IMG/VR virus record: IMGVR_UViG_3300036790_000366
Location: 12,384 to 76,383 of that record
Length of the DNA: 64,000 bases
Reading direction: 5' to 3' (one strand)
DNA from: a virus
Made by a program: the position numbers and the translations under genes. The notes under the pieces are model-generated. The model ran no database searches. It was not told the DNA's origin and saw nothing but the letters and a program-made list of their open reading frames with translations. This document shows positions 5,816 through 46,018 of this stretch, in pieces (within the stretch, counting starts at the first letter, position 1; each line of letters starts with the position of its first letter).

Positions 5816-8665
5816 TCACCTCACTCGGAAAGTGTGCCAGAGGGCATAAGAAACTGTGGTGCTGTTCCATGCGATGGAGAACCCGGTGATGGAACTGACG
5901 CTGATGTAGCAGCCCCGGGTGGTGGGACTGCTCGTGGTGTCGATGACTCCTGGCAGCGTGACGACCGGCCCCGCCATGGTGGAACCGTACCCGATGCTGA
6001 TGGCTCCGGCACCTGCCACGCCTCCCAGGAACCCGGCGAAGATGCACCAGTTCGGAAAGGCGCCACCGGTCATGTTCCCGTTGTTCACGGTGTACCCGAC
6101 GGTGCGCCAGGAAGCGTCGGAGTTGGTGGCGTCCCAGTTCATCTCCAGGCCGCCGTACTCCGTGCCGTGCTTCTGCACGGTCATGTACGACGTGGTGTCG
6201 CCGATGACGAACCCGCCACCGCTGACGGACTGAGTGCTGTCGATGACTGCCAGATGTGCGAACGACGGACCCTGCAAATAAACGCGCTGCCCCACCGTCG
6301 TGCTGTCCAGGCCGGAAGTATAAGTGGCGGTGTTGATGCCGATGCCAGCGCCCGCCTGAGAACCGAACTCGACTGCGTTGATGAATGCAGGTTTGGTTCC
6401 GGTGATGTCGTAGAGGTAGAGCGTCGGGTAGGAACCGGAGCAGTCCACGGTGAACTCGTTGCCGCCCGCGCCGGAGGCAAGAATGATGGTGGTCGAGCTC
6501 GGGCTGACGTCGAAGACCTTGAACCCGGCTGCGTTGTACGCGTGGAAGCCAAGGCTGTCCATCACCGCGCGGGCACCGGTGGCTGCCGTCTCGATCGTGC
6601 CGCCGAGGATGATGGTGGCCGTCACAGTGCCCGCGATGAGCTTGCTCACCGACAGGGAGGAGATGTGGGTGTCGTCGATCAGGACCGCGGTCACACCCGA
6701 ACCCGGGGAGGGCGGGGAGGAGTTCCCCGAGATGTCCACCGCGATGAGCTTGATGTAGATGCCGGTGGTGGAAGTCACCTGGAAAGTTCCCACCGCCACG
6801 ATTCCGGCGGCCATCATGCCCGCGTTGGCGATGAGCTTTCCGAGATATGTCGGGGAGGTTATTCCGGGGACGGGAACGAACGCCGGGTCGTAGCTGTAGT
6901 GGACTTCCAGGTGGTCCAGGTCGTTGGCCAGGTTGAAGGTGCCGCCTGCCTCCGAGCCCATGTCGCTGAGAACCTGGACCGCGACCATGGAGGCGAACAC
7001 CGTGGGCGCGTCCGGCTGGTTCGGTGCCAAGTCGTCCGTGGCCGTGACGAAAGCGCTCGTGGCGGAGAAGGTTCCGGTGTTCCCGGACACGTCCGTGCAC
7101 GCTATCTGGAAGTCGTACGTCTCCCCGCAGATGAGTCCCTGGATGACGAGGTTGTTGCTGTCGATCCCGACGGTCACCGTGGTCCACTGCTGGTTCTGCG
7201 GACTGTCCAGCGGGTTGCTCCACGGGTTCCCCTGGAGCGTGTTCCACGGCTTGCCCTGAAGCTGCGACCACTTGATGGGGTAGAGCGGCGTGCTCGCCAG
7301 CTTGTACTGCACCAGGTACTGATAGCCGTCGATCATCGTGGTGCCATCGGTGTTCGCAGGCGTCGTCCACTGAAGTTCCATCTGCGCCAGCGTGGTGCCG
7401 GTCGCCGGGGAGAAGTAAGCGGCCGTGTAGATGCTCGTGGGGGTGAAAGCAGGCGTGCCGGGAACCGTCGGGTTCGGACCGGGTGCCGCAGTGACACCGG
7501 TTGCCGGACCAGCGATGATTCCGCCGCTCAGTTTGTTCAGCGCGTTCGCTACCAGAATCTCGCGGCTGTAGAAAACGTTGTTCAGCGTGGGCTGTATGAA
7601 AGTCGGGCCGCCCGGACCGCACTGCGCGGCGACCTGTGCCACCTGGTACTTGGTCGTGGTTCCGTTGACGTCCAGCGAAATGTAATTTCCGGAGAAGTAG
7701 TCCTTCCAGGGAATCGGGGTCCCCTTGGACGTGTCGATGACATACGTGGGTGTCAGCGAGATCAGCTGGTCGTCGATGGCTCCGAGCGCCTGCTCCGCCC
7801 AGTAGGTGAGCGTGGCGGCGTCGGTCACGCCGGACTGCGACATGTAAGTCTCTATGCGGCCGATCGTTCCTTCGGTACCGGCGATGGTCTCGATGTTCAG
7901 GCCGTTGTCGCCCTGCGCCAGCATCACGGTGGCGATCTGCGTGCGGTCGCGCCCCTGCGGGGAGGTGACGATCTCCCGCCCCTTGCGAATGAACACCGTG
8001 GAACTGTGGTCCACCGCGAGAGTCGTCTTCGGGTTGTACATGTGCAGAACGGTGCCGGTCATGGAGAAGTCGCACAGGCCTCCCTGCGACAGGGAGATGA
8101 GCAGGTCCATCATGAACCCGCCCGCGTCGAACGCGTTCGTGTACGACTGCGTCCATGCCGCCCCGGAACTATCCTGTCCGTCGGTGAAGTCCCACGTGAG
8201 CAGAGGAAAACAACCGCGGGCCTGCGCTGCGGTCAGCAGGTCGTTCATCACCTTGCCCGCGGAGGCACCGGCGAAGGACCACGAGGTGGTGAGAGAACCG
8301 ACACCGGCCTGCGGGTAGATGATGGCCTCTTGCAGGAGGGCGATGATACTTCTGCCGGATGCCTGCACGATGGACGACTCGTTCATCGACGGGTCGTAGT
8401 TGTCCTGCTCGTAGAACCCGCGCCAGACTTCCTGGAACCCGTTGCCGTCACGCCGGTCCATCATGACGGCTATTTGCAGGTTCGTGTCCGAGATGAGGTT
8501 CGAGGCGCCGGGCGAGTTCAGGTTCCACTGCCACGTGAAGGACCCGACGTTGTTGTAGACGTCGAGGATGTTCAGGCTGGTGAAGTAGGGGAACTCGCAG
8601 AGAAGTGTGGTTCCGTTCGCTGCGTACACCCTCACCGTCATCGGGGTGTCGGCTGTAGTGGTCAC
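5816..8665 (-). CDS. Baseplate hub / Tal-like minor tail protein with FN3-like domains
   Basis: 949 aa after Dit; FN3-like 'YDFQIACTDVSGNTG' and 'IKLIAVDISGNSSPPS'; 'SLSVSKLIAGT' host-specificity motif. Confidence 0.75.
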   Translation of the reverse strand: MTTTADTPMTVRVYAANGTTLLCEFPYFTSLNILDVYNNVGSFTWQWNLNSPGASNLISDTNLQIAVMMDRRDGNGFQEVWRGFYEQDNYDPSMNESSIVQASGRSIIALLQEAIIYPQAGVGSLTTSWSFAGASAGKVMNDLLTAAQARGCFPLLTWDFTDGQDSSGAAWTQSYTNAFDAGGFMMDLLISLSQGGLCDFSMTGTVLHMYNPKTTLAVDHSSTVFIRKGREIVTSPQGRDRTQIATVMLAQGDNGLNIETIAGTEGTIGRIETYMSQSGVTDAATLTYWAEQALGAIDDQLISLTPTYVIDTSKGTPIPWKDYFSGNYISLDVNGTTTKYQVAQVAAQCGPGGPTFIQPTLNNVFYSREILVANALNKLSGGIIAGPATGVTAAPGPNPTVPGTPAFTPTSIYTAAYFSPATGTTLAQMELQWTTPANTDGTTMIDGYQYLVQYKLASTPLYPIKWSQLQGKPWNTLQGNPWSNPLDSPQNQQWTTVTVGIDSNNLVIQGLICGETYDFQIACTDVSGNTGTFSATSAFVTATDDLAPNQPDAPTVFASMVAVQVLSDMGSEAGGTFNLANDLDHLEVHYSYDPAFVPVPGITSPTYLGKLIANAGMMAAGIVAVGTFQVTSTTGIYIKLIAVDISGNSSPPSPGSGVTAVLIDDTHISSLSVSKLIAGTVTATIILGGTIETAATGARAVMDSLGFHAYNAAGFKVFDVSPSSTTIILASGAGGNEFTVDCSGSYPTLYLYDITGTKPAFINAVEFGSQAGAGIGINTATYTSGLDSTTVGQRVYLQGPSFAHLAVIDSTQSVSGGGFVIGDTTSYMTVQKHGTEYGGLEMNWDATNSDASWRTVGYTVNNGNMTGGAFPNWCIFAGFLGGVAGAGAISIGYGSTMAGPVVTLPGVIDTTSSPTTRGCYISVSSITGFSIAWNSTTVSYALWHTFRVR

Positions 8666-9568: not shown

Positions 9569-12160
9569 TCACACCTGCCCCGGGAACTGCGCACCCATCG
9601 GTGCCTGGTTTATTCCGAACACGGCCACGCTTTGCAGGGACTTCGTGAGGGACTGCGAGGCGGGCTCCGGAGTCGGGTTGTTTATCTGGATGGCACCGGC
9701 CGCGATGGTGACCGTCGTCCCACCGCCGGGAAGGTTTCCACCAGTGCCCAGTCCGGCTCCGAGACGGGAGTTCAGGTCCGCGTTCAGCTTGGTGGACAGG
9801 TCCGTGGTGAACTGCGAGCCGAAGGTGTTCCCGATGTTCTTCGTGAACCCGCCGAGGCTGCTCGCGACCGCGGGGTACTTCGACTCCAGCCCGTCCATGA
9901 AGCCTTGGATGACCATCTGCCCGGAACTGTAGAGGATCGTCTTGTCCTTGCTGGGCGGACCCTTCCAGCTGGGCAGCCATCCGGTCAGGGTCTTCAGGAG
10001 GGAGCTGAGTCCGGGAATCGCGTTCTCGATACCGTTGATGAAGCCCTGTACAAGGTTCCAACCGGCGTTGATAAGAACTTCCGACATGTTGCCCAGCCAG
10101 CTGACCACTTCTCCGGGGAGCTTCGCGAAGAAGGTTCCTACGGTGGCCAGCTTTGAGGCGATCGTGTTGATGAAATTCGTTCCCCATGTTTCCGCACCGC
10201 TGACGACCCGGCCGAAGAAACTTTCCACGTTGGTGACGACACTGCCGAGAGTCTTCAGGAAGAAGTTCTCCACCGCGGTAAGCGGAGCCTCGAAAAGCTT
10301 GACCAGGTATGTCCACCCCATGGAGACCATGTTGCTGACGATGGCCCATGCGCCCTGGAAAATTCCTTCGATGATTTTCCAGAAGCCGGTGAAGACATCT
10401 TCGATCCCCTTCCAGACCAGCGACCACTTGCCGGTGATCAGTCCGAAGAAGATGTCGAAGAGTCCTTCGATGACCTTCAGGCCGCCGCCGAATATTTTCC
10501 CCCATCCGGCGAACATCCCGGTGATGATCGACTCTATGTTCCCGCCGTAAGTCTTCCACGCACTTTCGATGTCCGGCCAGATCCCGATGAACCACTGCTT
10601 CACCTGGGACAGGTCGCCCTCGATGTCCTTGAACGTGGGGAGCAGGTTCTTGTTGACCCAGTCGCGGAAACTGGCGGACTTCTCGTAGAGGGTTACAAAC
10701 CCGACGGCCAGCGCCAGCACGGCAGCGACGGCGGCGCCCATCGGCGTGGCTATGAAGCTCATCAGAGGCCCCAGGGCGGGGCCCAGCTTGCTCGCGGCCA
10801 GTGCCATTAGGCTCAGGTCGGTGGCGACCCCCGTCAGCCCCTCGTGGGTGCTCGTGAAGTTATTCAGGTCCTTCAGCATGTTGTCGAGGAAGGTGAGGAA
10901 CCCTTTGTTCCCGGACTGCTCGCCGAGTGCGCCGACAAGATTGGCGACGAACTTGATGATCTGTCCGAGGATGTTCAGCACCAGCGGACCATCGGTCTCC
11001 ACCGTGGCGATGAACTTCTTGAACCCCGCGGACTGAGCGAGGTGCTGTGCCCAGGTGTCGAAGCTCTGCGTCATCTTGTCGAAGCCGCCGGACATCGAGA
11101 CACCGAGCGGCATGAAGGCGTCGAGGAGGGCGACGATTCCTTCGATGATGTTCAGGACGCCGTTGCCCCAGTCGCTGACGAGAAGCTGGACGTTGTCCGC
11201 CATGTCCTTGAAGAACTTCTGGAACGTGGGGTCGTTCATCCGGCCCGACATGTCCTGAAGTACTTCGTCGATCGCCTCTCCCGCACCGACTGCGGCCGGG
11301 GTCAGGTCTCCGATGGCCTGAGCCAGCAGGCCCATCGCGTCGGTGAGGATCGCCGTGGACTCCGGCTGTATCTCCTTCTGGAAGTCGGCCAGCTGCTGCT
11401 TCAGGAAGACGTACTCAAGAACCACACCCTGCGCGCTCTTGCTCATGGCCTTGAACGCGGCGGAGTTCTTGTCGAGGATTTTTATGCTCTGGTCCATGCT
11501 CTGCGAGTTCAGCAGGGCAGCCTGAGTCGCCGCGTTGAGGCCGGAGTAGAGCGTGCTGACGGACTGGTAGAGCTGGTCCGTGCCGTACGCCACGAGAGCC
11601 ACCGGAGCCAGCATGGTGCCGAAGGCTGACGCCAGCCCCATGGCGCCGCCCACGGTGCTCAGGAGGGCGGCGCTGAGCGGTATGAGCAGGGGCGCCAGCA
11701 TCTTGATGGAGAACTCGAACTTGCTGCTGGACTCCCCTGCGCTGTCCAGCTTCTTCGAGGTGTCGTCCACCTGCTTGCCGAACGTTTTCAGTTCTGTCTC
11801 GGACTCCGCCAGTCCATCGATTTTTATCTTGTAGTCGATGTCGTGCGGGGCGTCTTCGAGTTCCCGGGTCACCATCACGAGGGAGACGATGTCCTCTTCG
11901 CCCTCGATGTTTATCTTGATGTCTACCGTGTAGTCTTTCGCGTCCAGCTCATCCAGGAACGCCTTCAGCTCGTCAAGCTTGTCCTGTCCGTCGATGACGA
12001 CTTCGATGTTGACGCCCTTGTCGCCGATCTCGTCCAGCTTGGCGCCGACTTCGTCCAGCTTCGTTTCCAGCTCGTCCAACTTGTCGATGATGGCACTGAC
12101 GTCTTCGACTATTCCGTCCGGGTCGATCGAAGCTTCGCCGGATACTTCGAAATCCGCCAC
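9569..12160 (-). CDS. Tape measure protein
   Basis: 863 aa, helical, with 11-residue Trp/Phe periodicity; follows the chaperone. Confidence 0.9.
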   Translation of the reverse strand: MADFEVSGEASIDPDGIVEDVSAIIDKLDELETKLDEVGAKLDEIGDKGVNIEVVIDGQDKLDELKAFLDELDAKDYTVDIKINIEGEEDIVSLVMVTRELEDAPHDIDYKIKIDGLAESETELKTFGKQVDDTSKKLDSAGESSSKFEFSIKMLAPLLIPLSAALLSTVGGAMGLASAFGTMLAPVALVAYGTDQLYQSVSTLYSGLNAATQAALLNSQSMDQSIKILDKNSAAFKAMSKSAQGVVLEYVFLKQQLADFQKEIQPESTAILTDAMGLLAQAIGDLTPAAVGAGEAIDEVLQDMSGRMNDPTFQKFFKDMADNVQLLVSDWGNGVLNIIEGIVALLDAFMPLGVSMSGGFDKMTQSFDTWAQHLAQSAGFKKFIATVETDGPLVLNILGQIIKFVANLVGALGEQSGNKGFLTFLDNMLKDLNNFTSTHEGLTGVATDLSLMALAASKLGPALGPLMSFIATPMGAAVAAVLALAVGFVTLYEKSASFRDWVNKNLLPTFKDIEGDLSQVKQWFIGIWPDIESAWKTYGGNIESIITGMFAGWGKIFGGGLKVIEGLFDIFFGLITGKWSLVWKGIEDVFTGFWKIIEGIFQGAWAIVSNMVSMGWTYLVKLFEAPLTAVENFFLKTLGSVVTNVESFFGRVVSGAETWGTNFINTIASKLATVGTFFAKLPGEVVSWLGNMSEVLINAGWNLVQGFINGIENAIPGLSSLLKTLTGWLPSWKGPPSKDKTILYSSGQMVIQGFMDGLESKYPAVASSLGGFTKNIGNTFGSQFTTDLSTKLNADLNSRLGAGLGTGGNLPGGGTTVTIAAGAIQINNPTPEPASQSLTKSLQSVAVFGINQAPMGAQFPGQV

Positions 12161-12197
12161 GCTGCCACCTCCTCTAGCTGTTGCCCTAGCTGCTGCC

Positions 12198-41068: not shown

Positions 41069-43012
41069 CTAGTACCAACCTTCCAGGTTTCTCGACATGA
41101 GTTCCGTTACTGTTTCCGCCATCAGCCAGAAGACGTCACCGGTGGTGCGTCGGACGATGTCGAAGTTCTTTTCGTAGGACCACTTGTTGTCCTCACCGAA
41201 GCCGATGAGGCCGCACGCCTTGACGACGTCCGTCATGGACGCCAGGGATTTCGCTATCACATCGGATTCGTTCCACTGGCCGTCCGTCAGCGAGATGAGG
41301 AACTTCCCCGGTGTCTGCACCTGAGACAGGATCCTGCGCGCCTCCACGATGGCGTCGATCGCGTTCGTCCCGCCGGAGGCGTGCGGGTAGATGAAAGTGC
41401 TGTGCTCCACTTTGTCGTCGAGCTCGTAGAGCAGCCGCGAGGAGCTGTCGTAGGTGATGACGCAGACTTTCACGTCCACCTGCTCGCACGCCTTCTTGAT
41501 GCACCAGATGGCTTGCGCGGCCAGCAGACCGCGGACACCGACGGACCTTCCTTGGCTGTCTCTCACAGCGGTGTCCATCGAAGCGGATTCGTCCGAGATG
41601 ATGATGCCGGTCGCGGCGGAGTTGTGCTGCTGCCCCTCGCTCCAGTCGGCGTAGACGTCCTCTGTGTCCTCGTCCGACATGGCCGCCGTGAAGACACGGC
41701 TCATGTCCAGACGAGAGCCGTCGGAGACCCCGTAGCGCCAGCCGGGCTCCATGGCCTGCCAGATGCGCGCGAGCTCGCCAGCGTAGCGCTCAGAGCGTTC
41801 CCGCATGCCCGTGGTCACAGCGTGCTGGTGGGCGCGGATCGCCGGGTGGCGCTCCATGGAGGAGTGCAGGCCGTTGGTCATGTCGTCCATGACGTCGCGA
41901 ACATTCTGGACGTCCGTCTTGACCGTCTCGCTGTCCAGGATGTCTTCCATCAGGACTTCCAGGGCGCCCCGGATGTCCCGGTCGCTCAGGGCGTCGCGGC
42001 CCTTCCCGCTGCCAGCTTTCTGACCGGCTCCGTTATCACCAGAGGAACCACCTCCCCGCTCCTCCGAACCACCTTCACCGTCGTCTCCGTCCAGCTCTCC
42101 AGGATTTCGGTTACCGGGTTGAGAACCAGCACCCGGCGGATTCTGCCCACCGCCATCCTGCGTACCGGACGAGTCGTCATCCGCTTCTGTATCGCCATCC
42201 TGGAAATCGGGATCGTCTGCGCCATCTTCCTCCCCCTTCTCGGCCTTCTCCTGATCCTGCTTCTGCTGCCCCGGCTGCGTCATCTTGTTGCTGCCGTCGT
42301 TCGCTCCGGCAACCGCTTGGCTGTGGTTCGGCGCCGTCGCGCTGGCGGGGATGAGCTTGGCGAACTCCTTGATGATCCTCCCGGCCTCGGCCATGTCCTG
42401 CGGGTAGAGAAGAAGGCGGTACCTGTCGATCAGTTCTTCCGCCTGCTTCGTCTGGGGCTCGCCGAAAGCTGCGGCGTACCTCTGGCGAAGTACCCCCCGC
42501 ACCTTCTTCGGAAGGTACTTGCGCCCGTGCACCAGAAGATAGGTCTCCGGATCCGGCGAACCGATGATGAGGTCCGCCACGATGAGCGTGAAGTACTTCT
42601 TCAGGCGCGGGTACCGGGCGGAGAGAAGTGTCTCCACGCGCCCTTCCTCCAGGATGTTGTACGCATCCTCGAAGTTTGTCGCACTGTCTACTGCCCTCTT
42701 GATCCTCTCCACGTCGCTGAAGGTGTAGACGACGTGCGCGAGCTCGTGGTAATTCAGCCCCAGTATGGTGGCGATACCACGGTCCGACAGCGTGTCTCGC
42801 ACCTTGTCCGGGTGGATGTAGATCTCGTTTTTGACGGAGAAGGCGGGGTGCCTGCCCAGCCCCCCGCTCAGCACGCTTCTCCGGAGCGTGACGTTCACCG
42901 ACTCGATTCCGGACAGCGTGCGGTCGGCCAGCTGGAGAGACCAGCGCAGCCCCTGCAACCGGGTCGTCTGCCGGTCCCATTCCTGGTAGACGTCCCCGTT
43001 AGCGGTCGCCAT
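41069..43012 (-). CDS. vWA protein with N-terminal HExxH metallopeptidase-like domain (CobT-like)
   Basis: 'HELAH...LEEGRVE'; acidic Gly-rich linker; MIDAS 'DESAS...GGT...LTDG'. Confidence 0.85.
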   Translation of the reverse strand: MATANGDVYQEWDRQTTRLQGLRWSLQLADRTLSGIESVNVTLRRSVLSGGLGRHPAFSVKNEIYIHPDKVRDTLSDRGIATILGLNYHELAHVVYTFSDVERIKRAVDSATNFEDAYNILEEGRVETLLSARYPRLKKYFTLIVADLIIGSPDPETYLLVHGRKYLPKKVRGVLRQRYAAAFGEPQTKQAEELIDRYRLLLYPQDMAEAGRIIKEFAKLIPASATAPNHSQAVAGANDGSNKMTQPGQQKQDQEKAEKGEEDGADDPDFQDGDTEADDDSSGTQDGGGQNPPGAGSQPGNRNPGELDGDDGEGGSEERGGGSSGDNGAGQKAGSGKGRDALSDRDIRGALEVLMEDILDSETVKTDVQNVRDVMDDMTNGLHSSMERHPAIRAHQHAVTTGMRERSERYAGELARIWQAMEPGWRYGVSDGSRLDMSRVFTAAMSDEDTEDVYADWSEGQQHNSAATGIIISDESASMDTAVRDSQGRSVGVRGLLAAQAIWCIKKACEQVDVKVCVITYDSSSRLLYELDDKVEHSTFIYPHASGGTNAIDAIVEARRILSQVQTPGKFLISLTDGQWNESDVIAKSLASMTDVVKACGLIGFGEDNKWSYEKNFDIVRRTTGDVFWLMAETVTELMSRNLEGWY

Positions 43013-44027
43013 CGTCGTCCTCGAAAGTGAAGTCGGTCTGCTTGAGCCCCTGGCCCATCTTCGCGTTCCAGTCCACGTCGTATTCCGTGTCCGGAAGTAC
43101 CGTGTCGAGCTTCGCGCCGAGGAGCTTCTTGGCGATACCGGCGATCTGCGGCTTCAGCTTGTCGGAGTGCGCATCGACGATGAGCTTCAGGGCGCCGCGC
43201 TCCCCGGTGGAGAACATGGCGTTGAAGTTCGCTTCGGCGAAGTTGTAGCCCAGCGCCACCGCGATGTCGATGAACTCCATCAAACTGTTCGTGCTCACCG
43301 GGGTCTTGATTCCCGGACTGGCCCGGATCTTCTTGGCCATCTCCAGGAGCTCCGAGGACTTGATCAGCCTGCCCTCGACCGCTTCGTTGTAGTCCCACGG
43401 GATCTTGATGGCGAACCGGTTCAGGAAGGCCTCGTTCAGCTGCATCGTGCCCCGGTAGTCCGGGTTGTAGTCCGTCACGACGAGAAGCTTTTCGTGCGCC
43501 TTGACGATTTCCCCGCCCTTGCGCAGCAGGGGAAGTTCCCGGCGGTGGTCCAGCAGGGGGAAAAGACTCGCCGCGACCTTCGGCGACATGAAGTTCGCCT
43601 CGCTGATGTCCAGAACTCCGCCGCTCCGGACGAGCTCCGTCACCGGGCCGTCCTGCCACACGAAGCCGCCTTCCCCGTCCGGCTGCCAGCCACCGAGCAA
43701 AGCACCCGGCTCCATGGAGACGTCGCAGGGGACCGCGTAGAAATTCAGCCCCTTCAGGGCGGCCCACGCCATCGGGAACATCGTCTTCCCGGAACCCGTC
43801 GGACCGCGGACCAGAAGGTTGACCCTGCGGTCCATGCAGAACTGCAAGACGTCGAAGTCCTTCTGCCCGTTCACGGTCCGGCTGACGTACTTCAGGCCGT
43901 AGTCCGGATGGGGGACGTAGGAATGCCTCTCCTCCGGACGCTGCTCCGCCTCCAGCACCTCGACTTCTTCGGGTACCACCACCTTTCCGTTCCTCAGGTT
44001 CTTCGTCACCTTGACGTCGCTCGCCAC
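42999..44027 (-). CDS. MoxR / CbbQ / CobS-family AAA+ ATPase
   Basis: 'GPTGSGKT', 'WQDGPV', 'YNPDYRG...LNEAFLNRF'; paired with vWA. Confidence 0.88.
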   Translation of the reverse strand: MASDVKVTKNLRNGKVVVPEEVEVLEAEQRPEERHSYVPHPDYGLKYVSRTVNGQKDFDVLQFCMDRRVNLLVRGPTGSGKTMFPMAWAALKGLNFYAVPCDVSMEPGALLGGWQPDGEGGFVWQDGPVTELVRSGGVLDISEANFMSPKVAASLFPLLDHRRELPLLRKGGEIVKAHEKLLVVTDYNPDYRGTMQLNEAFLNRFAIKIPWDYNEAVEGRLIKSSELLEMAKKIRASPGIKTPVSTNSLMEFIDIAVALGYNFAEANFNAMFSTGERGALKLIVDAHSDKLKPQIAGIAKKLLGAKLDTVLPDTEYDVDWNAKMGQGLKQTDFTFEDDDGDR

Positions 44028-44028
44028 G

Positions 44029-44472
44029 TCATCTTCCTTCCGGGTCCGGGACCCTGCGGTCCAGAGCGCTCTCGGGTATGCGGTACGTGTTTCCTTCGAC
44101 GAGGCTTTCGTTCCCGCCGTTGCGCAGAACCTCCACGCGGACCTTTCCGTCGCTGTAGAGCTCGATGAAGCGGACCACCACGTGCCGGTAGGAGGCCCCC
44201 AGAAGCTCGTAGCAGGCCTCCGGGGCCAGAGCCGGAGCTCCCTCCCGGTAGTGCCGTACGCGCTTGAGGAAGGCTGTCCGGAAGGCGTCCGGGTCCTGCG
44301 CCTCCAAGCCCATCCGGTCGGAGATCCGGGAGTCGATGGCCTCCACGAGCTCGTAGAGGTACGGGTCGAATTCCCCGCGCACCAGAGCATCCGTGAATTC
44401 TTCGACGAAGTCCAGGACTTCGTTCATCGGGGACAGCGGGAGGGACTTGCGGCGAACCTTCTTCTCCGCCAT
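44029..44472 (-). CDS. Hypothetical protein
   Basis: 147 aa. Confidence 0.6.
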   Translation of the reverse strand: MAEKKVRRKSLPLSPMNEVLDFVEEFTDALVRGEFDPYLYELVEAIDSRISDRMGLEAQDPDAFRTAFLKRVRHYREGAPALAPEACYELLGASYRHVVVRFIELYSDGKVRVEVLRNGGNESLVEGNTYRIPESALDRRVPDPEGR

Positions 44473-44669
44473 CAGGTAGCGCCCTTCATGGCTTCCCGGT
44501 ACGCCTTGGCCATATTGCCGTACTCACCGATGGCGATGGCCTGCTCTGGAGTGAGCTCCATGGTTCCCGAGAGGCACCCGTCGTAGAAGCACACGAAAAC
44601 AGTGTCCCGGTGCTTGATGTGGTTCACCGTCATGCGCTCAGGACCGTTTCTAGTCTTCTTCTTGGCCAT
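44472..44669 (-). CDS. Small hypothetical protein
   Basis: 65 aa, TGATG coupling. Confidence 0.55.
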   Translation of the reverse strand: MAKKKTRNGPERMTVNHIKHRDTVFVCFYDGCLSGTMELTPEQAIAIGEYGNMAKAYREAMKGAT

Positions 44670-44872
44670 CAGAAGTCGAGCTCCGTCTCTTCCACGCGGA
44701 TGAGCTTCACCTTGAAGCCGCGCCTCCGCTGATCCTGCGCCAGTTCCATGGCCGACTCGATGGCGCGGCGGATCAGACTGGTGACCGAGAGCCCGTCCTT
44801 TATCTTGCTCTTCCACTCGACCCGGTAGAAGACGTTCCTGTCGTGCTCATATTCCACTACTCCCTCCGGCAC
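44669..44872 (-). CDS. Small hypothetical protein
   Basis: GTG start with GGAGG RBS, 67 aa. Confidence 0.55.
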   Translation of the reverse strand: MPEGVVEYEHDRNVFYRVEWKSKIKDGLSVTSLIRRAIESAMELAQDQRRRGFKVKLIRVEETELDF

Positions 44873-44899
44873 TTCTTCCTCCCTTGTCTGTTGCTTGCG

Positions 44900-44967
44900 C
44901 GGACCGGACGGGAATCGAACCCGTGACCGAGGCGTATTGCTCTGCTCTACCACTGAGCTACCGGCCC
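44900..44967 (-). ncRNA. tRNA-like RNA with intact acceptor, D and T arms but a shortened anticodon arm
   Basis: GGGCCGG-TA-GCTC-AGTGGTA-GAGC-[19 nt]-ACGGG-TTCGATT-CCCGT-CCGGTCC-G. Confidence 0.8.
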
Positions 44968-44971
44968 GTGT

Positions 44972-44987
44972 GGGGCCTTTCGGCCCC
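44972..44987 (-). terminator. GAAA-tetraloop hairpin directly 5' of the tRNA-like RNA
   Basis: GGGGCC-GAAA-GGCCCC. Confidence 0.45.
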
Positions 44988-44996
44988 GTCGTGCTG

Positions 44997-45233
44997 TTAC
45001 TTCGCTTCCAGGATCTCGACGACCACGCGCACCCGGACGGGCACCGTGCCGTCCAGCGGCCCCTTCTTCAGGTACAGGCCGCCGATGACGTGTCCGTCGG
45101 GGTCTCCGGTCTCGTTGAGCCGGTAGGTCCCGGGAGTCTCCTTGAAAGAGACGAACTCCGCCTCCATCCGGACGACACCGGGCTTCTTCGCCGCAGCCTT
45201 CTTGGCCGGGCGCTTGACGACTGGAACGGTCAT
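44997..45233 (-). CDS. Small basic hypothetical protein
   Basis: 78 aa, AAGGAAG RBS. Confidence 0.6.
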   Translation of the reverse strand: MTVPVVKRPAKKAAAKKPGVVRMEAEFVSFKETPGTYRLNETGDPDGHVIGGLYLKKGPLDGTVPVRVRVVVEILEAK

Positions 45234-45244
45234 GCTTCCTTCTC

Positions 45245-45772
45245 TCATGTCTTGAAAGCCTCCCGGAAGCACTCCACGTGCCCCCCGGTTCCCTCTGCTT
45301 CTTCCTCGCTGAGCTCTTCCGAGCAGACTGCGCAGCGGAGGAACAACTTACCGTACTCGACCATGCAGTCCATCGGACCGGCCTTCCGAATCTCCAGGAC
45401 CGCGTAAGTCCGGTCGTAGACGCCGGAGAGGAGCTGTGCCGCCCCGGTGTCCATGTCGAACCCGGTGACGAACCAGAACTCCGCCCAGCGTCCCTCCTGG
45501 AACTGCCGGACCAGGAAGTGCGCGCCGGACGGGCCCCAGGTCTGCGGCGGGATGTAATAGTGCCCGTTCGGCACTGCCAGGGACTCGATGTACTCGGCGA
45601 GCAGCTGGCTCTTGGACAGCGCAGCCTCGGAGGGCACGGCCTTCGACGGTGCCCACATGTCGATTTTTGCGTTCCGCGCTCTCCGCTGCCTGCGCTCGGC
45701 TGCCTCCGCGCATTTCTTCCCCGTCTCCGGGCTCCGGTGGTTACCGCCGCAGTGCGCGCAGTGGTACGACAC
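45245..45772 (-). CDS. Zn-binding hypothetical protein (DUF6011-like C-terminus)
   Basis: 'YG....RCAVC...L...EA...G.HVEC'; N-terminal CxxC-H-C. Confidence 0.55.
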   Translation of the reverse strand: MSYHCAHCGGNHRSPETGKKCAEAAERRQRRARNAKIDMWAPSKAVPSEAALSKSQLLAEYIESLAVPNGHYYIPPQTWGPSGAHFLVRQFQEGRWAEFWFVTGFDMDTGAAQLLSGVYDRTYAVLEIRKAGPMDCMVEYGKLFLRCAVCSEELSEEEAEGTGGHVECFREAFKT

Positions 45773-45775
45773 CTG

Positions 45776-46018
45776 CTAGTCCTCCTCCTTCGATTTTGCG
45801 TACTTTTTCAGGTCCTTCCAGTTGGAAAAGCCTCCGAAGTCATCGCCACTGATGACGTCCACTCCTATGAAACGGAGTGCTACGGTCTCGTCGTCGTAGA
45901 CCATGGACATGGTCTGAAGCTCCTGAAAGATCTTCTGAGCCACGTCGCTGACGTCGATCCCGTCCGGGTGCGCTTCGGCAGTGATGAGGATGTAGACCTT
46001 CTCACGGTATTCAGCCAT
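45776..46018 (-). CDS. Hypothetical protein, first gene of the leftward early operon
   Basis: Strong GAAGGAGA RBS. Confidence 0.6.
   Translation of the reverse strand: MAEYREKVYILITAEAHPDGIDVSDVAQKIFQELQTMSMVYDDETVALRFIGVDVISGDDFGGFSNWKDLKKYAKSKEED

Follow-up and report, generated by a model that had tools for sequence, protein, structure and literature searches.

Non-decoding tRNA-shaped RNAs are usually dropped as pseudo-tRNAs in phage annotation. One such sequence lies between two small genes of a soil phage, in bases 12384-76383 of a 76.4-kb IMG/VR virus record (IMGVR_UViG_3300036790_000366); this 64,000-nt stretch is called the window below. Does a tRNA-like RNA without a normal anticodon arm serve this phage, and in what way?

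Structure of the element

The element consists of a hairpin, a short linker and a tRNA-like cloverleaf (Table 1). It begins 9 nt past the stop codon of the upstream small gene (up1), ends 27 nt before the start codon of the downstream small gene (dn1) and lies on the same strand as both. The hairpin is the sole perfect GC-rich GNRA hairpin on the minus strand of the 64-kb window.

The tRNA-like matches the Rfam tRNA model at 50.6 bits (E 6.7e-8 in the 64-kb window; gathering score 29), and in this alignment the central arm alone is shortened. ARAGORN calls no tRNA or tmRNA in the window. The tertiary core, as read from the sequence, is present: U8, A14, G18G19, R15:Y48 and a UUCRANY T-loop. 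The features of an RNase P/Z substrate, a 12-bp acceptor/T stack and an elbow, are present as well. A regular anticodon arm would have a 5-bp stem and a 7-nt loop with U33, an anticodon and R37; the element has 3 bp and 8 nt in this place, and a variable region of 4 nt (GGUC) separates this stub from the T stem.

An initial annotation, made from the letters alone, had described canonical acceptor stem, U8-A9, D arm and T arm, and all of these sequence statements hold on the minus strand. It was also right that only 19 nt (A, GAG-CAAUACGC-CUC, GGUC) lie between the D and T stems where 22-23 are normal, that no 5-bp/7-nt anticodon arm forms, and that a GAAA hairpin sits 4 nt upstream.

Table 1. 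Features of the element and its neighbours (window coordinates)
Feature	Position	Strand	Remarks
up1, upstream small gene	44997..45233	-	~78 aa, Lys/Ala-rich N-terminus; from ORF list
up1 stop codon TAA	44997-44999	-	9 nt before hairpin
GAAA-tetraloop hairpin GGGGCC-GAAA-GGCCCC	44972..44987	-	6 bp, all G:C, without U-tract
Linker ACAC, hairpin to tRNA position 1	44968..44971	-	predicted RNase P cut 44968/44967
tRNA-like cloverleaf, 68 nt	44900..44967	-	Rfam RF00005 match and fold
Acceptor stem GGGCCGG/CCGGUCC, 7 bp	44961-44967 / 44901-44907	-	contains G3:U70
D arm GCUC-AGUGGUA-GAGC, 4-bp stem	44944-44958	-	U8-A9 precede, A26 follows
Stub in place of anticodon arm, GAG-CAAUACGC-CUC	44929..44942	-	3-bp stem, 8-nt loop
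T arm ACGGG-UUCGAUU-CCCGU, 5-bp stem	44908-44924	-	
Discriminator G	44900	-	no CCA encoded after it
Leader, 27 nt, A/C-rich	44873..44899	-	Shine-Dalgarno AAGGGAGGA at 44877-44885
dn1, downstream small gene	44669..44872	-	67 aa, GTG start at 44872
dn1, then small ORF, MoxR/CobS-type AAA_5 ATPase, 647-aa protein		-	operon order

Genomic context

The element belongs to a minus-strand operon, divergent from a DnaB-helicase module. On the element's strand, neither a promoter-like nor a terminator-like consensus is found between 43800 and 46800, and we infer from the sequence that the element is part of one transcript with its flanking genes. up1 and dn1 belong to no Pfam or PHROG family; in the Atlas both have sub-threshold neighbours only, which for up1 are all phage hypothetical proteins.

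The AAA_5 ATPase, whose entry in the protein collection has 342 aa, forms a conserved pair with its 647-aa partner at 41069-44027 on the minus strand. A homologue of the partner in Gordonia phage GMA6 is annotated as 'putative von Willebrand factor protein'. The closest named phages are the Gordonia Bendigovirus phages; their ATPase is 46% identical, and the layout of DnaB and ATPase-vWA genes is alike. Judging from these nearest phages and a GC content of ~62%, the host is probably an actinobacterium.

Conservation in related phages

Five JGI soil or rhizosphere contigs are retrieved with a profile built from the ATPase and the homologues that are 70% identical to it (Logan ATPases P0002-P0004). 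Five versions of the element can thus be compared: those of the window, L048, L049, L050 and L051/L052, the last two being taken as one. Identity of the ATPase to that of the window is 71% in L048 and L049, 53% in L050 and 51% in L051/L052.

In L048 and L049 the module is located ~700 nt upstream of the ATPase gene, straight after an up1 homologue; its hairpin has a GCAA tetraloop, its linker is ACAA, and its tRNA-like, again short in the central arm, scores 48.3 bits (L048) and 53.6 bits (L049) with the Rfam tRNA model. This model gives no match in L050-L052 at E<=0.1. A covariance model (R1) built from the window, L048 and L049 versions finds the module at the syntenic place in L050 and L051/L052. 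By tblastn, L048, L049 and L050 have an up1 homologue immediately before the element, and L051 has one as judged by eye; the homologues of dn1 share 60% identity with it in L048 and L049, and 43% in L051/L052.

All five versions fold as a hairpin and a cloverleaf with a short central arm. Hairpin and acceptor stem are kept throughout, as are a linker of 3-4 nt (ACAC, ACAA, ACAA, ACAU and CCA), a T arm whose loop is canonical, and the location after the up1 stop and before the ribosome-binding site that follows. The hairpin stem is compensated (CC/GG to AG/CU in L049); its loop is GNRA (GCAA or GAAA) in four versions and folds as 5-nt GAAAU in L050. The D arm is mostly kept; it is degenerate in L051/L052, whose T arm stays canonical. 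G15:C48 of the window is A15:U48 in L048.

The stub varies widely. It is GAG-CAUUACGC-CUC in L048, CUC-AAACAAAUC-GAG with swapped strands and an unrelated 9-nt loop in L049, GGA-GAGG-UCC with a tetraloop in L050, and a different short arm in L051. Among the four clearly folding versions the central loop has 8, 8, 9 and 4 nt, and there is no conserved anticodon, U33 or size. Thus no close relative has a full tRNA at this site, all four being short-armed, and the suggestion in the initial annotation that selection acts on acceptor and elbow only agrees with relatives that keep acceptor, T arm and mostly the D arm as the stub drifts freely.

That annotation had also proposed to look for covariation, and compensatory changes are indeed found. 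In the alignment of the five versions (A6), which was fitted to the structure via the model and so favours pairing counts somewhat, 97.6% of cells are paired and 12 of 25 pairs have changed on both sides. These changes touch all five helices, hairpin included. None of 500 shuffles reaches as high a value, and partners slid by 1-3 columns pair in 35-60% of cells. Since related phages keep the module, it is a working part. The comparison shows that a non-decoding tRNA-like RNA, set within an operon and linked at constant distance to a hairpin, is under structural selection.

Between L048 (5227-5316) and L049 (5226-5314) the element is only 75% identical, while the flanking small genes are 90-95% identical; the stub strands are swapped, the hairpin stem is compensated, and neither the D-loop nor the T-loop is the same. 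Such a pattern suggests either that the element was replaced locally or that it changed unusually fast with its structure preserved. In L050 (1788-1852, plus strand) the acceptor stem has 8 bp, with an extra G:C pair at its open end followed by C; this recalls the G-1:C73 pair of bacterial tRNA-His.

Several other readings of the locus were tried and rejected. The hairpin is not an intrinsic terminator, as there is no U-tract and no match in the terminator scan. Sequestration of the Shine-Dalgarno sequence by CCUC of the stub is not compatible with the swapped strands in L049. An ORF at 44669-44953 would run through the element as coding sequence; the Shine-Dalgarno and start region of dn1 (GTG at 44872) is conserved, being identical in L048 and L049, and the leader differs between these two by a 4-nt indel, so that it is not coding.

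Independent assemblies

The short central arm could in principle reflect a 3-4 nt deletion introduced into a normal tRNA gene by sequencing or assembly; the metagenomic origin of the record is the one point in favour of this. Three other soil metagenome runs from two further studies yield contigs of 42-76 kb that span 44400-45400 at ~97.5% identity, each with 25 substitutions and zero indels over this interval, at word depths of 59-270. Among the runs listed as containing this DNA, none is an RNA run. The arm is short in the four diverged relatives as well. An artefact is therefore refuted. The 20 substitutions that are listed are all in the flanking ORFs; none of those listed falls within 44779-45004, where ~5.6 would be expected at a uniform rate.

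Two contigs of the ~97.5% identical strain have 75,725 and 75,777 bases; this record has 76,383. Given these similar sizes of independent contigs, the record may be near-complete despite a CheckV estimate of 62%.

Relationship to tRNA-Ala and to the tRNAs of the phage

In their 3' halves, U70 included, the tRNA-likes hardly differ from phage tRNA-Ala(UGC) genes (L106 and L108), which suggests that the element descended from tRNA-Ala. Charging of tRNA-Ala is independent of the anticodon. The initial annotation had noted G3:U70, the identity element of alanyl-tRNA synthetase, together with a G discriminator; both are seen in the window, but G3:U70 as a functional signal for this synthetase is not supported. 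Position 3:70 is G:U in the window and L048, A3:U70 in L049 and G:C in L051; the G:U of L050 sits elsewhere, next to the stem end of the 8-bp acceptor stem. With G3:U70 confined to two of the five versions, charging with alanine is not what the family conserves. The discriminator across the five versions is G, A, A, C and A.

The missing CCA, which had also been pointed out, is real and no peculiarity. Three canonical tRNAs of the phage (Glu-UUC, Glu-CUC and Arg-ACG) are encoded just outside the window (L001:1138-1572, minus strand; record 11383-11817), set in a long structured non-coding block. Their genes have no CCA either; the trailers are CGC, CGC and CGU for Arg-ACG, Glu-CUC and Glu-UUC, and the 3' trailer of the tRNA-like is CGC. 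A host pathway that matures these tRNAs would therefore fit the tRNA-like too.

Possible role in RNA processing

The best explanation, held at a rough probability of 0.45, is that hairpin, 3-4 nt linker and anticodon-less tRNA-like would together act in cis as RNase P/RNase Z punctuation of a polycistronic phage transcript. Transcription from an operon start near 46.0-46.4 kb would run through up1, hairpin, tRNA-like and dn1. Host RNase P would read the acceptor/T-arm stack and the D/T elbow and cut at the 5' end of the tRNA-like (44968/44967). The upstream mRNA would be left with a very stable hairpin and 3-4 unpaired nucleotides, stabilising the upstream cistrons. A tail of 3-4 nt is too short for PNPase, RNase II or RNase R to engage; this block to 3' exonucleases after the RNase P cut would be the reason for the fixed hairpin spacing. 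RNase Z, or the 3' activity that matures the CCA-less tRNAs of the phage, would cut past the discriminator at 44900 and free the downstream mRNA with its 27-nt leader and strong Shine-Dalgarno sequence. The anticodon arm, needless for these enzymes, would have shrunk to a variable stub, and the released 68-nt RNA would be a by-product or perhaps have a second role.

What is conserved corresponds to the portion of a tRNA read by RNase P, RNase Z and CCA-adding enzyme, for which the anticodon arm is needless. A kept T-loop with a degenerate stub (and, in L051, a degenerate D arm) would be the pattern expected under selection for a minimal RNase P/Z substrate. Of the three roles put forward in the initial annotation, an RNase P/Z processing tag is the best anatomical fit: the element lies between two cistrons, neither a promoter-like nor a terminator-like site belongs to it, and a hairpin precedes it by 3-4 nt in every version.

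The t-elements of plant mitochondria are a close parallel (Forner et al. 2007, PMC1920247). They are non-canonical cloverleaves with a well-kept T arm, lie in longer transcripts by protein genes and are thought or shown to direct RNase P and RNase Z cleavage, by which the 3' and 5' ends of mRNAs arise (PMC1920247). They differ in being organellar, in having experimentally mapped ends, where those of the phage element are predicted, and in that no obligatory hairpin 3-4 nt upstream has been described for them.

Some observations stand against this processing function. The T-arm motif GGTTCRANYCC occurs once in the 64-kb window, in the element, so the phage makes no general use of tRNA punctuation. 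The versions of the window, L048 and L049 exceed a minimal RNase P substrate, with a full D arm, G18G19 and a G15:C48 to A15:U48 change at the positions of the Levitt pair; this surplus of tRNA core may hint that the released RNA has a function. With the hairpin just 4 nt away from the cut, the RNase P protein would also be left with little single-stranded leader. A cis-acting role in processing and a trans-acting role of the product are not mutually exclusive.

To our knowledge, mRNA ends made by RNase P via tRNA punctuation have so far been documented mainly in organelles and vertebrate lncRNAs. If processing takes place as proposed, the element would be a clear case of tRNA punctuation with RNase P-made, hairpin-capped mRNA 3' ends in a bacterial phage. 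It would also be a compact, portable tool for obtaining differing expression levels within operons of high-GC bacteria.

Alternative explanations

The main rival, of lower probability, is that the 68-nt RNA is itself the product: matured by the same RNase P/Z cuts and given a CCA end, it would work in trans as a mimic of tRNA. It would then occupy a protein that reads acceptor, T arm and elbow; candidates are alanyl-tRNA synthetase, EF-Tu, SmpB, a modifying or CCA-adding enzyme, and an acceptor-end toxin. The full tRNA core with tertiary pairs in the window, L048 and L049 is consistent with this, as are G3:U70 in the window and L048, A73 in L048, and the near-identity of the 3' halves to tRNA-Ala(UGC) of L106 and L108. 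With SmpB as the candidate target, the RNA would be an inhibitor of trans-translation similar to the tRNA-like domain (TLD) of tmRNA. Mycobacteriophage DS6A provides a precedent: its gene encodes little beyond the TLD, and such a molecule inhibits tmRNA whether chargeable or not (Hudson, Lau and Williams 2014, PMC4131195). Like the DS6A gene, the element is an anticodon-less tRNA mimic with G3:U70 (here in two of five versions) in a phage of a probable actinobacterial host. Unlike a TLD, it has a normal 4-bp D stem, ends in the acceptor stem and has a closed stub where the TLD has helix P2. ARAGORN finds no tmRNA in it, and the one match among the Rfam tmRNA models, to tmRNA_permuted, is a 17-nt stretch at the T-loop that scores 12.8 bits where the gathering score is 47. 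Further points against a mimic are that G3:U70 is gone in L049 and not at 3:70 in L050 and L051, that the discriminator is variable and that the D arm is degenerate in L051/L052. No TROVE (PF05731, searched over the 76-kb record), CCA-adding enzyme or RtcB gene was found in the phage, and the element has no promoter or terminator of its own. A mimic would also leave the conserved hairpin and linker spacing unexplained. Should trans action be true, the element would be an addition to the emerging phage tRNA mimics directed against host translation or defence factors. Among the roles suggested initially, a decoy for anticodon nucleases is unlikely with no conserved anticodon-like loop, and a Y-RNA/tmRNA-like module is at odds with the absence of an Rfam family match (E<=10, the 17-nt stretch aside) and of a TROVE gene, and with the intact D stem.

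Rather unlikely is a combination in which one RNase P cut would give both a hairpin-protected early message and a stable, CCA-tailed, anticodon-less mimic that acts in trans. In such a dual role, which would resemble that of MALAT1 and mascRNA, the G3:U70 versions may be alanine-charged, and targets may include SmpB and trans-translation, EF-Tu or an acceptor-end-directed toxin. Loss of function is less probable again. A decaying tRNA pseudogene would account for the rejection by ARAGORN and the destroyed anticodon arm, and aberrant tRNA-likes are common in phage genomes (32 unique ones from one strict pattern, see below). It would not account for a cloverleaf and hairpin kept with 12 double-sided compensations between flanking proteins that are only 43-63% identical, for a nucleotide identity between window and L048 that is higher in the element (84%) than in its flanks (64-71%), or for the lack of any listed substitution within the element among near-identical strains. 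A tRNA fragment of the att-site type, considered together with the pseudogene and equally improbable, would not have both tRNA halves; neither a relative of the phage nor a copy of the element was found in 185,579 species genomes. Very improbable is a decoding tRNA whose anticodon arm is unusual, such as a suppressor of frameshifts or stop codons with 8 nt in its loop. UAC is found within the 8-nt loop of L048 and the window, and ARAGORN forces L049 to 'tRNA-Leu(CAA)' and L048 to a 2-nt anticodon. Against decoding, the stem has 3-4 bp and not 5, so that the loop would by reasoning be held too near the elbow; the loops are unrelated in sequence and vary in size, U33 is missing in L049, and L050 has a plain tetraloop. 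With a stub that varies this freely, decoding is in practice ruled out.

Comparison with known tRNA-like RNAs

The 3' module of MALAT1 and MEN-beta, as reportedly described by Wilusz, Freier and Spector in 2008, has a protective structure just upstream of an RNase P site. mascRNA, which is freed there by RNase P and RNase Z, is said to be tRNA-like with a poorly conserved, shortened anticodon arm. The order of protective structure, RNase P site and tRNA-like is the same in the phage element; the resemblance is functional and not one of homology. MALAT1 differs in being a eukaryotic nuclear lncRNA, in having a triple helix with an A-rich tract as protector and not a GNRA hairpin, and in having no downstream cistron.

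YrlA and Y RNAs contain, according to a reported description by Chen et al. from 2014, a tRNA-like module of acceptor, D and T arms without an anticodon loop. Where a tRNA has its anticodon stem, a Y RNA extends into the Ro-binding helix, in which the RNA ends lie; an rsr (TROVE) gene is found nearby. The phage element differs from these RNAs in its closed stub and in that there is no TROVE gene. Rfam gives no Y-RNA match to the element at E<=10, and nothing but tRNA scores above E 0.3.

Compared with canonical tRNA (RF00005), the acceptor, D and T arms and the tertiary nucleotides match. The element differs in that it has neither a 5-bp/7-nt anticodon arm nor a conserved anticodon, and in that G3:U70 is not family-wide.

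Distribution of short-armed tRNA-like sequences

Megablast of 44000-46000 against INPHARED gives no match, and the element is absent from the Gordonia Bendigovirus phages Hanem and GMA6 (best R1 match 11 bits, filters off). By blastn the element resembles tRNAs of various isotypes, in a generic way only. The stub version, sought as an exact pattern, has no other copy in IMG/VR, and the ATPase as a single query finds no relative there; a profile search with the ATPase in IMG/VR finds only relatives at <=34% identity. Searches of the 185,579 species genomes with the ATPase and with the pattern of the short-armed family gave no match. No description of the element was found in a literature search; a 2023 survey of structured RNAs in IMG/VR mentions tRNA-like candidates only in general terms.

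Other short-armed tRNA-likes exist in IMG/VR (L053-L099). A single strict pattern yields 32 distinct phage tRNA-likes whose D and T arms are canonical and whose central region is <=17 nt long; some stand alone, others belong to large tRNA arrays. One family recurs in many contigs and has a 4-bp stem and a 6-nt loop; ARAGORN reports it as 'tRNA-???' with a 2-nt anticodon. A hairpin is found upstream of 6 of the 32 short-armed tRNA-likes and of 21 of 122 normal tRNAs in IMG/VR (Fisher p 0.8). As there is no enrichment in this sample, coupling to a hairpin is specific to the present family and not a general rule.

Two further arrangements can be observed. In L005, one of the distant relatives from the ATPase profile search (31% ATPase identity), a canonical tRNA-Met(CAU) follows a G/C-rich hairpin at 7093-7194 on the plus strand, just downstream of the ATPase gene. 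This may be the hairpin-plus-tRNA arrangement at another place in the same operon type. In the present record, a second aberrant tRNA lies ~220 nt before the start of the window (L001:1766-1921, minus strand; record ~12011-12166). It has the acceptor/D/T frame and an insert of ~85 nt, closed by a long stem, at the anticodon loop. It is missed by the Rfam tRNA model and scores 15.5 bits with R1; a GUCCC-GCAA-GGGAC hairpin is located 3 nt beyond its 3' end.
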